Sequence record: MH719082.1
DNA from: Escherichia phage vB_EcoM_IME392
Length of the DNA stretch: 64,000 nt
Direction: 5' to 3' (one strand)
Shown: in pieces, positions 52,367-61,717 of the stretch
Numbering within the stretch: the stretch's first letter is position 1
How the letters are laid out: every line of letters begins with the position of its first letter
Program-made: the position numbers and the translations under genes
The notes under the pieces: model-generated
What the model saw: only the letters and a program-made list of their open reading frames with translations
Told to the model about the DNA's origin: nothing
The model's database searches: none

Positions 52367-52920
52367 CAGATACTCCGTACAAATAATTCCCGGAATGGTT
52401 TAATTACCCTCTCTACTTCAGCATCCATCTTAGTTTCGGACTTACCAGATAAGATGTTGAAAAGAGATACACGAACGGCCTCCCGAACCGACTCTTGAGT
52501 CATATCGGCCTTACCTTCATACGCTGCATAAAGAGTCTGACAGTTGCTAAGCAAAAATACCAGCTCCACTGCCTGATGAACGAGTTCTTGGTACTGCTGG
52601 TCTCGTTCGATAGCCTCGTTCATCTTAGGAGTGTGTGGATTATCGCAGATTTCCCAGGTCTTTACGATATCCGGATTAGCGAATACGTCAGACGACTTAA
52701 TACCTATCGACACCTTAAGCAGACGATGCATAATACCGTTATTGGTAATAGTCAGGTCATGCATAGCTTGACGAAGAGCCTGCTCGAATTCAAAGCTAGA
52801 CTCACGGACTATTACATCGTAGCTCTCAGTCTGACCGATGGGACGGACAGTTAGGACGAGTACTGCTGTGCCTCCCAACATACCGATTAGGTTGTCTATA
52901 TCCATATTACTCAAAGTCAT
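52366..52920 (-). CDS. hypothetical protein
   Basis: 184-aa ORF, coupled to neighbours. Confidence 0.5.
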   Translation of the reverse strand: MTLSNMDIDNLIGMLGGTAVLVLTVRPIGQTESYDVIVRESSFEFEQALRQAMHDLTITNNGIMHRLLKVSIGIKSSDVFANPDIVKTWEICDNPHTPKMNEAIERDQQYQELVHQAVELVFLLSNCQTLYAAYEGKADMTQESVREAVRVSLFNILSGKSETKMDAEVERVIKPFRELFVRSI

Positions 52921-53279
52921 TTCTTTACCTTCTTATAGAACTTGTGGTCGCCTATTCTGGCTGTCATTCTATAGCCCTTCCAGTTAGGCCTAACCTTTAC
53001 ATTATGAAAGTGAGTAGCCCCGAATGTAGGATCTTCACTGTATTTAACTCTTGCCGCAATATGAATAGCAGATGCCTTAGATTTAGGATCTTTCATATTC
53101 TGGTAAGAGATGTGACGGTACCACGGAAAGGTATTCCTGTTTTTAACTACCTTACATGGGCTTATACCGTATTTCTTCGCTCGGTTGAGTACCACGTGGG
53201 CTACAGCTAACTGCCCACGTTCCGACTCTCCCCTGGCCTCATAGTAGACGACCATAGCTACGCAATCGGCAGAAGTCAT
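52917..53279 (-). CDS. SleB-like cell-wall hydrolase (Hydrolase_2 family)
   Basis: 120 aa; YYEARGESERGQLAVAHVVLNR...FGATHFH...IGDHKFY. Confidence 0.65.
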   Translation of the reverse strand: MTSADCVAMVVYYEARGESERGQLAVAHVVLNRAKKYGISPCKVVKNRNTFPWYRHISYQNMKDPKSKASAIHIAARVKYSEDPTFGATHFHNVKVRPNWKGYRMTARIGDHKFYKKVKK

Positions 53280-53310
53280 AGTTCATTCCAAATTAATCAT
53301 CCGTGACGGA

Positions 53311-53688
53311 TTACAGAGATTTCTCTGTGGTGGACTCTTCCAGTAGTCCACCCAGAGCTGCGAATACCATGTTCACCGAGTCGTCAATCTCTTTGATTAA
53401 CGATTGGAGATTATTGGTATCTGCGACCATGCCTCTGACCTGGTCGCTAATATCAGCCGCACCCAACTTAGTACCTTCACCAGCCAGACTGTCGATTAAA
53501 CGAACTTTGGCCTTATTTAACTGGTCGATTTTATCCTGGATAGCAGCCTTACGCTGATTACATGCCAGAATTATGATTTGTTTTAAATCAACCTGGCTAG
53601 CATAGCTCTCGCGGAAGTGCTTTACCAGATTAGCTTCGTCGATTACCGGCAGAGCCTCTGGATGAGGTCCGTTGAATGCGTTGTACAT
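53311..53688 (-). CDS. hypothetical protein
   Basis: 125-aa ORF. Confidence 0.5.
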   Translation of the reverse strand: MYNAFNGPHPEALPVIDEANLVKHFRESYASQVDLKQIIILACNQRKAAIQDKIDQLNKAKVRLIDSLAGEGTKLGAADISDQVRGMVADTNNLQSLIKEIDDSVNMVFAALGGLLEESTTEKSL

Positions 53689-53700
53689 AATTTCTCCTAA

Positions 53701-54324
53701 TTAGAAACGATCGCGACCTACGATTGGCGCGACTGGTTTAAAGTCAGTCTGGTCGTAACCTTTGTAAAGGTCGTAGCCACCACCAGCTATCTCAGTAAAG
53801 TAGATTTGCCCGATTCTCATATTAGAACGTAGGCGTATAGTATTAGGGCTTAAATTCACGATCTCCAAAGTGAACGCTCCTTTAAAGCCGTAGTCTCCAT
53901 AGCCTGCGCTAACGTGTGATAGGATACCTAAACGTGCCATAGTACTGCGACCGTCGTAATGCTGACAGAATGCTACACCACGGTCTACCGCGCTGTTACG
54001 GTAACGTGGGTCGTAATGCGCGAACCACTTCTCAGGCAACATAGCAGTACAGTCGATACGTTCTGATGCAGAACCTAATATGAACTCCCTAGGTTTAAGG
54101 TCGTAGTATAGCGCCTCTACTTCACGATACTCCGGAAGAGTACATGGTTTATAGGGATCTACTACATGGCCATCAGGCATCTTTTGAGGAACCAGGAAGA
54201 ACGGAGCTAAGCGTACATCTACACTATTCTGTCCGATTCGTGGTTCCTGATTGTCCAGATAACTGTGATAGGTCCATAATCCCTGAGTAATTGCCTGCTC
54301 AATATAAGATTTACCAAGGATCAT
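53701..54324 (-). CDS. dCTP deaminase-like protein (dUTPase superfamily)
   Basis: 207 aa; SVDVRL and DGRSTMARLGI match Dcd blocks. Confidence 0.65.
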   Translation of the reverse strand: MILGKSYIEQAITQGLWTYHSYLDNQEPRIGQNSVDVRLAPFFLVPQKMPDGHVVDPYKPCTLPEYREVEALYYDLKPREFILGSASERIDCTAMLPEKWFAHYDPRYRNSAVDRGVAFCQHYDGRSTMARLGILSHVSAGYGDYGFKGAFTLEIVNLSPNTIRLRSNMRIGQIYFTEIAGGGYDLYKGYDQTDFKPVAPIVGRDRF

Positions 54325-54509
54325 TACGGATGCTCCAGCATGTTCTTAACAGATTCTTCATCTGTAGCTTCTACGGCAGCATTATGATTCTTGAATGCTC
54401 CCCAGATATCATCAGATACGATCATAGTCTTAGGAGCTAAGTGCTCCGAACGAATAACCGTAATCTGGTTACGGTTAAGGTCCTTAGTTAGTTGCTCAAT
54501 ATCCATCAT
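54324..54509 (-). CDS. small hypothetical protein
   Basis: start at internal ATG 54509 after GAGGAA. Confidence 0.4.
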   Translation of the reverse strand: MMDIEQLTKDLNRNQITVIRSEHLAPKTMIVSDDIWGAFKNHNAAVEATDEESVKNMLEHP

Positions 54510-54527
54510 ATTCCTCGGTTCTATGGT

Positions 54528-54560
54528 AGAATAACATTGACCTCTCCTCAAAGAGGTCAA
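54528..54560 (-). terminator. hairpin terminator candidate downstream of dUTPase
   Basis: 9-bp stem TTGACCTCT/AGAGGTCAA, 6-nt loop, weak T-tract. Confidence 0.35.
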
Positions 54561-60010: not shown

Positions 60011-60273
60011 GAGGGTATAAACCTTAGTGTAGTTCGCATCAGTCCCCACTAAGGTCTCGACAATACCTTCATCCTCTATCCAGTTCCGGACAATCTGAAT
60101 AGGGACACTACCTAACTATTCGTAATGCAACCATAGCCGGAGACGTAACTTAATCGTGCCCTATGTATACGCATTACTTAATGAGAGTATATAGTTGCTC
60201 TTCCCAGACTATCGAATCTGTTTTACGGAAGAGCAGCTATTAGGCCGTTAGGTGCCTTAATAGAACTCAGCTA

Positions 60274-60444
60274 TTAGTAAAGCTTCACTACTTTGTTAGA
60301 TACCCAGGACTGAGGGTTGGCAGATTCCACCATTTTGTCGTAGGCACGATCTGCTTGATCTTTAGTCTCAAATTCCGCAATTACCGAGTGAACTGATGGA
60401 GCATCCCGAGCAACAATACTACTTACAATAAGTAACTTAAACAT
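60274..60444 (-). CDS. small protein with signal-peptide-like N-terminus (absent from ORF track)
   Basis: ATG 60444 overlapping stop of upstream gene (ATGTTTAA); 56 aa MFKLLIVSSIVARDAPSVHS... Confidence 0.3.
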   Translation of the reverse strand: MFKLLIVSSIVARDAPSVHSVIAEFETKDQADRAYDKMVESANPQSWVSNKVVKLY

Positions 60445-60796
60445 GAGTCATCCTCCTGGAGCGGTCGCAGGAGTCCCAGATTGCGTTATATACTCTCTTA
60501 CCATCTTCGTAAGATAGACCGTAAGCATCACCATTACAGTCAATTAACGCACTTACTCCTCCCAGCTTAATTTCCGGACCGTAAATATCGTTATAGACAT
60601 GGATTACACCATTAGCGCTTACCCAAGTCCATGTATCTTTACGAATCATCCGGATTTCGTCATTATCTAGCATTCTGATAAATTCGGTAGGATCCCCAGT
60701 ACGGATCATATTCTCATAAGCTAGTCGCTCTTCCGATTTAGTCAGTAAGGGAATTGCTGGAACAGTTTTAAATATAGATTTTAATTTCTCAAACAT
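60437..60796 (-). CDS. hypothetical protein
   Basis: 119 aa; tandem duplicated SD GGAGATATTA x2 upstream. Confidence 0.5.
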   Translation of the reverse strand: MFEKLKSIFKTVPAIPLLTKSEERLAYENMIRTGDPTEFIRMLDNDEIRMIRKDTWTWVSANGVIHVYNDIYGPEIKLGGVSALIDCNGDAYGLSYEDGKRVYNAIWDSCDRSRRMTHV

Positions 60797-60871
60797 ATCT
60801 TAATATCTCCTAATATCTCCTAAGACTATTCACATAGAGCACCATCAGATGCTCTATAGGAATAACCTCTA

Positions 60872-60906
60872 CAGTTTAACAGCCTTTCGACCCTTAGAAA
60901 GAGCGG
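60872..60906 (-). promoter_or_regulatory. conserved leftward promoter-like motif, copy 12
   Basis: CAGTTTAACAGCCTTTCGACCCTTAGAAAGAGCGG. Confidence 0.45.
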
Positions 60907-61140
60907 TTATTTAATATATTTAGCTTTGGCAACATCCAAACCTGAAGATGTAAGCATACACATATTATAGTCGCCGTAAATCTTAGGGCAAGTACCATTA
61001 CCTTGGAACCATGTAGCTAGTCCCTTATCTACCAGACTTGCCGCTCCCGACTTAGACGGAAGATCTCCATCAGTAGCTGGCCCGAACCAGAAGAGTCTGT
61101 ACAATACATCCTCTTCCCCACCCATTAATTCTTGATCCAC
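60907..61140 (-). CDS. hypothetical protein
   Basis: 77-aa ORF. Confidence 0.45.
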   Translation of the reverse strand: MDQELMGGEEDVLYRLFWFGPATDGDLPSKSGAASLVDKGLATWFQGNGTCPKIYGDYNMCMLTSSGLDVAKAKYIK

Positions 61141-61150
61141 AGTTATCTCC

Positions 61151-61717
61151 TTAAAATGTCTTATTGTAGTTCATACCAGGATATATGGTATCCTCATTAT
61201 GGCCTTCGCCATTCTTATTAGTGATCGGCTGGCCAGTTTCGTTCATTACTCCAATATGTACCATATCAGAGAATTTACGATCTATGCCGTTGAGCTCAGC
61301 ACCACAATGCTGGCAGTACTGGCGAACATCCAGTTTAGTATCGTGGTAACCATCTGGCTTAGTAGTTACCTTAGTTAGGTAATGAGTATGGTAATGACTA
61401 GACTGAATATTCTTCAGACGATTCATATGATCCTTCATTACCCGAGCTTTGGTCTGTAGTAAATCGGTTATCTGCTTCTCTAACTGCTCTACAGCCGTAT
61501 CGTAATGAAGTGCAGAAACATGCATATCATTCTTGATAGTCAGATAAATACCAGAAGATCTGGAGTCAGGAATTACCAGACGATCACCTGGGTAAATAAG
61601 ATCAGGATTAGGGTGGGTAGCTTTGTTAGCCTTAGCCACATCCTCTAATCGGCAACGATACAATTCTGCAATACCAGACATCGTATCTCCAGATTTAACT
61701 ACATGATAGTAGGGCAT
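61151..61717 (-). CDS. LysM-domain protein
   Basis: N-terminal YHVVKSGDTMSGIAELY...LIYPGDRLVIP. Confidence 0.6.
   Translation of the reverse strand: MPYYHVVKSGDTMSGIAELYRCRLEDVAKANKATHPNPDLIYPGDRLVIPDSRSSGIYLTIKNDMHVSALHYDTAVEQLEKQITDLLQTKARVMKDHMNRLKNIQSSHYHTHYLTKVTTKPDGYHDTKLDVRQYCQHCGAELNGIDRKFSDMVHIGVMNETGQPITNKNGEGHNEDTIYPGMNYNKTF

Follow-up and report, generated by a model that had tools for sequence, protein, structure and literature searches.

A leaderless SleB-like hydrolase gene and an orphan LysM protein gene outside the lysis cassette of Escherichia phage vB_EcoM_IME392

A stretch of 64,000 nucleotides (nt) of Escherichia phage vB_EcoM_IME392 (MH719082.1), referred to here as the window, was found to carry two genes with possible cell wall functions outside its lysis cassette. 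One encodes a leaderless, single-domain protein of 120 amino acids (aa) of the SleB/CwlJ (Hydrolase_2) type, and the other a 188-aa protein with a LysM domain. An initial annotation, made from the sequence, had joined them as one set of peptidoglycan-targeting genes. Domain searches support both of its family assignments (Hydrolase_2 and LysM), and both genes are located, as it stated, outside the rightward lysis cassette and in the leftward block. Their treatment as a single feature could not be upheld: the two genes are separate and unrelated, belong to different transcription units with 8 kb between them, and do not form one system. Our preferred reading, held tentatively and at somewhat less than even confidence, is that the SleB-like protein is a holin-dependent accessory muralytic enzyme stored in the cytoplasm, and that the LysM protein is an oligomeric glycan-binding adaptor.

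Identity and structure of the SleB-like protein

The SleB-like open reading frame (ORF) is found on the minus strand where the initial annotation had placed it, and contains the motifs quoted there, YYEARGE, AVAHVVLNR and GDHKFY. It matches the Pfam family Hydrolase_2 (PF07486) from the first to the last of the 100 profile positions, scoring 73.4 bits where the cut-off is 27 (E=2.5e-20), and also matches PHROG 938, 'endolysin' (E=1e-22). An AlphaFold2 (AF2) model made from a 12-sequence alignment reached a pLDDT of 93.9. Foldseek comparison of this model with the PDB gave TM-scores of 0.79 to 4fet_B and 0.74 to 4f55, both SleB catalytic domains, over 119 columns with 25% identity; the remaining PDB matches all had E>1.

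We take the catalytic Glu of the SleB motif to be the residue numbered Glu157 in Bacillus cereus and Glu151 in Bacillus anthracis. In an alignment with SleB 4f55, Glu14 of the YYEARGE motif falls on the first Glu of YGESRGE; it is invariant across 12 homologues, and the other family-invariant residues are also retained, leaving the whole active-site signature intact. A catalytic Glu is reported to be essential both in SleB and in a SleB-like effector of a type VI secretion system (PMC12331253, PMC11148199). The window protein is presumably a lytic transglycosylase.

The fold and the catalytic Glu motif are those of the Bacillus SleB/CwlJ spore-cortex enzymes (4f55, 4fet). The architecture is CwlJ-like rather than that of SleB proper: the protein consists of the catalytic domain only, and both the N-terminal PG_binding_1 domain and the signal peptide of SleB are absent. 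It further differs from Bacillus SleB in its phage context and in a Gram-negative host that lacks the muramic-delta-lactam substrate.

Only 13 residues precede the catalytic Glu. The SleB-like and LysM ORFs are each the longest reading possible from the preceding stop codon, and a search for an upstream extension or leader found none, since both open at the first start codon after that stop. A hydropathy scan detected no signal peptide, signal-anchor-release (SAR) domain or transmembrane (TM) segment in either protein, which makes periplasmic action of either before lysis unlikely. The suggestion of the initial annotation that they act in superinfection exclusion or in remodelling of the host envelope is thereby weakened, as leaderless proteins have no known route to the murein of an intact infected cell. 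The SleB-like protein is strongly basic, with an isoelectric point of 10.1, 24 Lys and Arg residues against 8 Asp and Glu, and a KKVKK tail. Because a strong positive charge is a reported trait of Hydrolase_2 lysins in Gram-negative phages (PMC8223927), we counted the isoelectric point and the tail in favour of a wall enzyme.

The ratio of nonsynonymous to synonymous substitution rates (dN/dS) is 0.118 for the SleB-like gene (against relative L007), 0.096 for the endolysin gene of the lysis cassette, which belongs to glycoside hydrolase family 19 (GH19), and 0.130 for the LysM gene (against relative L003). With dN values of 0.122 and 0.126, respectively, the SleB-like and endolysin genes are under equal constraint. 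Such low ratios across deep divergence indicate that the SleB-like and LysM genes are real and functional. That they are decaying or functionless passengers, for example remnants of morons, has a next to negligible probability: the LysM family is tiny and patchy and the G+C content is slightly lower at 60-62 kb (0.418 versus about 0.45), but the dN/dS ratios of 0.12-0.13 largely refute this explanation, the ORFs are not truncated and keep their synteny in relatives, and the catalytic residues are intact. PADLOC gave no match for either protein.

Position of the two genes relative to the lysis cassette

The lysis cassette is located at the end of a 43-kb rightward structural block. It converges on a terminator-like hairpin with the leftward block, which extends from 52124 to at least 64000 and consists of small genes and genes of replication and nucleotide metabolism. 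The SleB-like gene is the third-last of the leftward block, on the opposite strand to the cassette and tail-to-tail with it. Its 3′ end (52917) lies about 0.85 kb from the end of the last cassette gene (52071); the endolysin gene ends at 51005, a distance of 1.9 kb. The description of both genes as far from the endolysin therefore holds for the LysM gene, about 10 kb away, but not for the SleB-like gene. The latter is nevertheless outside the holin/endolysin/spanin unit, with the hairpin between, and the endolysin slot of the cassette is filled by the GH19 gene (50358-51005). The GH19 endolysin has no signal or TM segment and hence also needs a holin, a part that the product of 51020-51436 would play judging from its position and hydropathy. 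The overlapping pair that follows is predicted to act as spanins.

The tail module encodes a third muralytic domain, a GH19 domain that forms the C-terminal part (aa 720-920) of the 952-aa protein at the tape-measure position. This protein, whose gene has tail sheath and baseplate genes on either side, is likely the entry lysin. The phage thus has two GH19 domains, in the tail protein and the cassette endolysin, in addition to the SleB-like enzyme. The role at entry considered in the initial annotation finds little room beside this tail lysin. The SleB-like and LysM genes are both in the leftward non-structural block, outside the structural module, and neither is fused to a tail protein.

A promoter-like motif and the transcription units

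An element of about 36 nt recurs in the window. In minus-strand reading it consists of CCGCTCTTTT, a spacer of about 15 nt and TGTTAAA(G)T. Its core has 14 matches in the window against 1.0 expected, all of them in two leftward blocks and 12 in the same orientation; the 43-kb structural and lysis block contains no copy. Copies that head genes are located 15-30 nt before the ribosome-binding site, and the element is kept at equivalent places in diverged relatives, being present in L001, L003, L007 and L008. We infer that it represents an extended -10 with an upstream box, that is, a phage-specific class of non-late (early or middle) promoter. A scan for sigma-70 promoters and terminators gave no guide to expression timing, with 23 promoter-like sites against 27 expected.

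The copy at 55680-55715 would drive, in order, genes for a 74-aa protein, a RyR-domain protein, dUTPase, a 78-aa protein, dCTP deaminase, a 125-aa protein, the SleB-like protein, a 184-aa protein and an 80-aa protein, up to the terminator. The LysM gene is in a separate unit, upstream of the copy at 60871-60906, which follows the 77-aa gene at 60907-61140; in relative L003 a copy is found 19 nt after the LysM gene. As the units are separate, the SleB-like and LysM genes do not form one operon or system.

SleB-like genes in other phages

SleB-like genes were found in 1237 of 50,697 phage records, including T5-like phages, Vequintavirinae, Pakpunavirus, jumbo phages and some podophages in which the gene is the annotated endolysin. 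Their location outside lysis cassettes is common in Gram-negative phages and has already been described (PMC11180984, PMC7344957); the leaderless form is a minority. The 'cell wall hydrolase SleB' proteins (Hydrolase_2, PHROG 938) of T5-like Demerecviridae, Vequintavirinae (CB7_83, CR3_087), Pakpunavirus (PaP1 gp029, PAK_P3 gp151) and Caulobacter phage Cr30 have the same catalytic domain as the window protein, with 38-45% identity and an invariant Glu, and their genes are likewise off the holin/endolysin cassette, among early or nucleotide-metabolism genes. Unlike the window protein, however, they have an N-terminal signal peptide or TM anchor, as seen in the homologues of T5-like phage Sw2, Cr30 and PaP1. 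Among the 122 closest relatives from a search of 5.8 billion proteins, the catalytic motif is preceded by an N-terminal extension in 112 (strongly hydrophobic in 96 of them), while eight start at most 17 residues from the catalytic Glu, including the window protein and a relative with 80% identity to it.

Several of these proteins have been discussed in the literature. The Vequintavirinae homologue is reported to have a signal peptide and to be toxic in E. coli (PMC7344957), and for T5-like Salmonella phages 'endolysins far from the holin' have been described that contain a SleB domain, beside a cassette M15 peptidase (PMC11180984). The PAK_P3 'cell wall hydrolase' gp151 was proposed to be an auxiliary metabolic gene product (PMC4933390). 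The same idea could be applied to the window genes, as wall remodelling or murein turnover in mid-infection that releases muropeptides or precursors, the periplasm being reached by an unspecified route. It would gain from the early location and the signal peptides or anchors of the related enzymes. We consider it very unlikely for this phage, since a leader is absent, by loss or from the outset, in the window protein and its orthologues and no membrane protein is encoded nearby within the same unit.

In the relative with 80% protein identity, gene order is conserved from the exoribonuclease gene to the GH19 endolysin gene, and the layout around the SleB-like gene is thus lineage-stable. In Acinetobacter phage Ab1-TPeters a leaderless SleB-like orthologue also adjoins a dCTP deaminase gene, and a convergent muralytic gene about 1.2 kb away is CHAP-like (weak match). 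This gene being of another family, the SleB-like gene may be the conserved element and the cassette enzyme the exchangeable one. The linkage to dCTP deaminase was considered for the RP13-like phages as a whole and rejected, as neither YerA41 nor Carin-5 has a SleB-like gene within 5 kb of dCTP deaminase; the 'putative transglycosylase' of Carin-5 gave only a sub-threshold match to SLT.

Leaderless Hydrolase_2 proteins of 128-131 aa were also found in two metagenomic phage-like contigs (L012, 3358-3753; L014, 517-903). An HSP20 gene lies immediately 3′ of each, with genes for endonuclease V and an intein-containing ThyX-like protein near them and no lysis genes in view.

The lysozymes of T4 (gene e) and T7 (gp3.5) are leaderless muralytic enzymes encoded outside any lysis cassette, which reach the wall only after holin action. 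The SleB-like protein resembles them in being leaderless and encoded among non-late or DNA-metabolism genes. It differs from them in fold and chemistry, which are unrelated, and T4 e is the sole endolysin of its phage whereas the window phage also has the cassette GH19. A regulatory partner of the kind that T7 gp3.5 has was not found for the SleB-like protein.

The LysM protein

The LysM protein is encoded at 61151-61717 on the minus strand, as initially annotated. Its N-terminal part (aa 1-50) matches PF01476 above the cut-off (45.1 bits versus 20.9; E=9e-12; profile 1-43 of 43), PHROGs agrees, and both the sequence signature and the beta-alpha-alpha-beta fold of the domain are present. In the AlphaFold model (pLDDT 70) the chain past residue 50 forms a long helix (51-107) followed by a small beta domain (112-158), and no catalytic domain was detected in the chain by Pfam or PHROGs. 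The beta domain is marked by the motif [H/C]108-x-H110 ... PDGY ... C135-x-x-C138-G, in which the conserved candidate ligands H108, H110, C135 and C138 may form a small zinc-binding module. Searches with the C-terminal part gave a sub-threshold Zn_Ribbon_1 knuckle (E=0.095) and a match to LysW-like 'CEDCGAEL' (E=3.5). A DksA/TraR-like zinc finger, considered because of the 'YCxxCGxE[LI]' pattern, was rejected as no family match supports it.

The family consists of three 90% clusters among the 5.8 billion proteins, with no match in IMG/VR, and among phage genomes a homologue was found only in Escherichia phage EP_H11. An exhaustive profile search with the C-terminal part added one match, the 108-aa protein P0012, which has no LysM domain and shares the helix and the motif [C/H]-x-H...PDGY...C-x-x-C-G-x-E-L. 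The P0012 gene (L016, 1459-1785) is located between TelA, vWA-TerF-like and TerD genes in a phage-like contig.

The canonical LysM domain is common to this protein, to the LysM modules of endolysins and tail proteins, and to Kbp of E. coli, which is among its PDB matches. Kbp is a cytoplasmic LysM protein that does not bind murein. Unlike the lysin and tail modules, the window protein is neither joined to a catalytic domain nor provided with a leader, and its C-terminal helix and Cys/His knuckle domain have relatives only within the tiny family. That it is peptidoglycan-targeting is open to doubt: the protein is leaderless, and such a C-terminal knuckle is more typical of cytoplasmic proteins. 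On the other side, if the helix forms a coiled coil, the protein would be multivalent despite its single LysM domain, in keeping with a glycan-binding adaptor.

Another PDB match (9g8s_T) is a similar-sized LysM protein in the needle complex of myophage phiCD508, and Pfam detected no LysM domain in the baseplate module of the window phage. Both observations would agree with packaging of the two proteins into the virion for entry, where the SleB-like protein would cut murein and the LysM protein anchor the tail tip. This is decidedly unlikely, however, because both genes are outside the 43-kb structural block and associated with the motif class of the leftward block, the tail already bears a GH19 domain, and the SleB-like homologue in phage PA5oct was not found in virions by mass spectrometry (10.1101/406421).

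Phage lineage and thymidine modification

By major capsid protein, the window phage has 63% identity to Acinetobacter phage Ab1-TPeters and 55% to Ralstonia phage RP13; YerA41 and Carin-5 are more remote. Escherichia phage EP_H11 (111 kb), whose record is annotated nearly throughout as "hypothetical", is about 94% identical to the window across the SleB-like/LysM region. EP_H11 has been assigned to the RP13-like phages, with thymidine that is probably hypermodified, and its dCTP deaminase WBU87719 is among the members of the 5-hydroxymethyldeoxyuridine (5hmdU) pathway (PMC12686479; 10.1101/2025.03.26.645540). The window ORF at 53701-54324 is the orthologue of WBU87719. The window phage is a virulent myophage of the RP13-like lineage, and its DNA is probably also T-hypermodified.

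The window contains two genes of the dUTPase superfamily on the minus strand, the dCTP deaminase-like gene (53701-54324) and a dUTPase gene (54592-55062). The pair fits a supply of dUMP for the 5hmdU or hypermodified thymidine proposed for EP_H11 and the RP13-like phages (PMC12686479).

This setting would allow a different substrate altogether. Instead of murein, the SleB-like and LysM proteins might have as cytoplasmic targets the hypermodified thymidines of the phage itself, which bear sugars, or their activated sugar precursors. The LysM domain would read GlcNAc-type decorations (N-acetylglucosamine), and the knuckle would contact nucleic acid. We give this only a very small probability. 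If true, the conserved association of the SleB-like gene with the dCTP deaminase gene, whose product belongs to the 5hmdU pathway, would be functional and not accidental.

Proposed roles of the two proteins

In the reading that we prefer, the SleB-like enzyme would be expressed with dUTPase and dCTP deaminase, whose genes share its leftward non-structural unit, and, being leaderless and basic, would accumulate harmlessly in the cytoplasm. Access to the murein would come only once the inner membrane has been opened by the holin of the adjoining convergent cassette, and the enzyme would then provide a second, accessory muralytic activity beside the GH19 endolysin. The LysM protein would be an oligomeric adaptor, through its putative coiled coil, and would meet murein either after holin action or if it is packaged in the virion.

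Several points weigh against this reading. GH19 and SleB-type enzymes both cleave the bond between N-acetylmuramic acid and GlcNAc, so that the gain from a second enzyme is unclear. The promoter-like motif suggests that the SleB-like gene is regulated together with early or middle genes and not with the late lysis genes. Leaderless relatives adjoin the HSP20, ThyX and endonuclease V genes, and this context could mean a role unrelated to lysis. Finally, it is the domain name that links the LysM protein to murein, and its Cys/His knuckle points to an intracellular partner.

Much of this would equally suit a moonlighting function, in which one or both of the proteins have a cytoplasmic partner other than murein and any wall activity is secondary. 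Precedents are E. coli Kbp and T7 gp3.5, the latter an amidase that is encoded among DNA-metabolism genes and regulates T7 RNA polymerase. Both window proteins are leaderless, and both genes are in the block of replication and nucleotide metabolism under a non-late motif; dCTP deaminase accompanies the SleB-like gene in two genera, and the genes just named accompany its leaderless relatives; the LysM protein has the putative coiled coil, the knuckle and the match to Kbp. We nevertheless regard moonlighting as unlikely, since the catalytic Glu and the full active-site signature of the SleB-like protein are strictly kept, its strongly basic charge fits a wall enzyme, and no partner was identified.

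Table 1. Features of the window (positions in the 64,000-nt stretch)
Feature	Position	Strand	Basis or remarks
SleB/CwlJ-type (Hydrolase_2) putative lytic transglycosylase, leaderless, single-domain, 120 aa	52917..53279	-	Pfam, PHROG, AF2/Foldseek
Orphan LysM protein, 188 aa: LysM aa 1-50, long helix 51-107, small beta domain 112-158	61151..61717	-	
Promoter-like motif heading the SleB-like unit	55680..55715	-	repeat family
Promoter-like motif just 3′ of the LysM unit, after the 77-aa gene 60907-61140	60871..60906	-	repeat family
13-nt core of the motif, minus-strand copies	2864, 3850, 5315, 6842, 7025, 7083, 7688, 8712, 55684, 56759, 59478, 60875 (+ strand coordinates)	-	
Canonical GH19 endolysin, first cassette gene, leaderless	50358..51005	+	Pfam Glyco_hydro_19 33.8 bits; PHROG 181 'endolysin' E=8e-60; no TM segment
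Holin candidate, one TM segment (aa 13-38), directly 3′ of endolysin	51020..51436	+	hydropathy and position; PHROG 9685, no assigned function
Overlapping spanin-like pair	51440..51728	+	51440-51670 N-terminal hydrophobic anchor; 51519-51728 lipobox LVSC
110-aa protein, C-terminal TM segment, last cassette gene	51739..52071	+	
Bidirectional terminator-like hairpin	52061..52122	.	inverted repeat, 11-bp perfect G+C-rich stem, T runs on both strands
184-aa protein	52366..52920	-	start codon overlaps SleB-like stop (ATGA); syntenic in relatives
dCTP deaminase-like gene	53701..54324	-	Pfam DCD E=1.9e-22; near SleB-like gene
Tail protein, 952 aa, tape-measure position, C-terminal GH19	23484..26342	+	Pfam GH19 aa 730-827; PHROG 181 aa 720-920, E=2.4e-39

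Neighbouring genes and other features of the window

The overlap of its start codon with the SleB-like stop codon suggests that the 184-aa gene is translationally coupled to the SleB-like gene. Its product has no family in Pfam, PHROG or PADLOC. It was considered as a membrane, SAR or holin-like partner and rejected, since an Arg occurs within its hydrophobic N-terminal stretch in relatives and the family searches gave no match. The last gene of the leftward unit (52124-52366, minus strand) encodes an 80-aa zinc-ribbon-like protein of the CxxC...CxxC type, and in Ab1-TPeters an 83-aa Lar-like zinc-ribbon protein (L004, 5976-6227) is encoded at the equivalent position, after the SleB-like and dCTP deaminase genes.

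Further upstream, the minus-strand genes at 55059-58092 encode a RyR-domain protein (55059-55439), a DUF4326 protein (55702-56025), an Rv2179c-like 3′-5′ exoribonuclease (56015-56728) and a NADAR protein (57625-58092), a cluster also found in syntenic arrangement in relative L007. Counter-defence or the reversal of ADP-ribosylation may be considered as functions of NADAR and the genes around it. EP_H11 has an extra ORF of 216 aa (L001, 5696-6346; 57401-58051 of the record) that is absent from the window phage, located between the orthologues of 53311-53688 and 53701-54324. The ORF has no clear family, with a weak match to Cys-rich metallothionein-like proteins, and may be a mobile insertion.

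The 529 nt at 59745-60273 contain no ORF of 40 aa or more, and the 3′ half in minus-strand reading is G+C-rich and structured. The identity of this region to EP_H11 is 98.1%, versus 96.6% for the flanking 3 kb, and its RNA fold has a z-score of -2.5. It matched no Rfam family, the Rfam scan of the whole window giving two tRNAs only, and may be a non-coding RNA or a regulatory region.

In the structural block, 39045-42032 (plus strand) encodes a complete endosialidase tailspike with all four endosialidase Pfam domains and an S74 chaperone. It is followed at 42156-44777 (plus strand) by a second tailspike-like protein with the same N-terminal adaptor domain. The pair suggests specificity for the K1 capsule and a dual-receptor arrangement.

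Significance

These findings change little for phage biology at large. Genes for a second wall hydrolase of the SleB type, off the lysis cassette, are widespread in Gram-negative phages, and the SleB-like gene described here is a leaderless addition to this well-known class. The combination of LysM domain, helix and knuckle is a near-orphan architecture that could be either a trans-acting wall-binding subunit or unrelated to the wall, and the LysM protein gains importance only if a partner or ligand is found. The window phage itself provides a clean case of the rarer leaderless form of the SleB-type enzyme, in a phage of E. coli.

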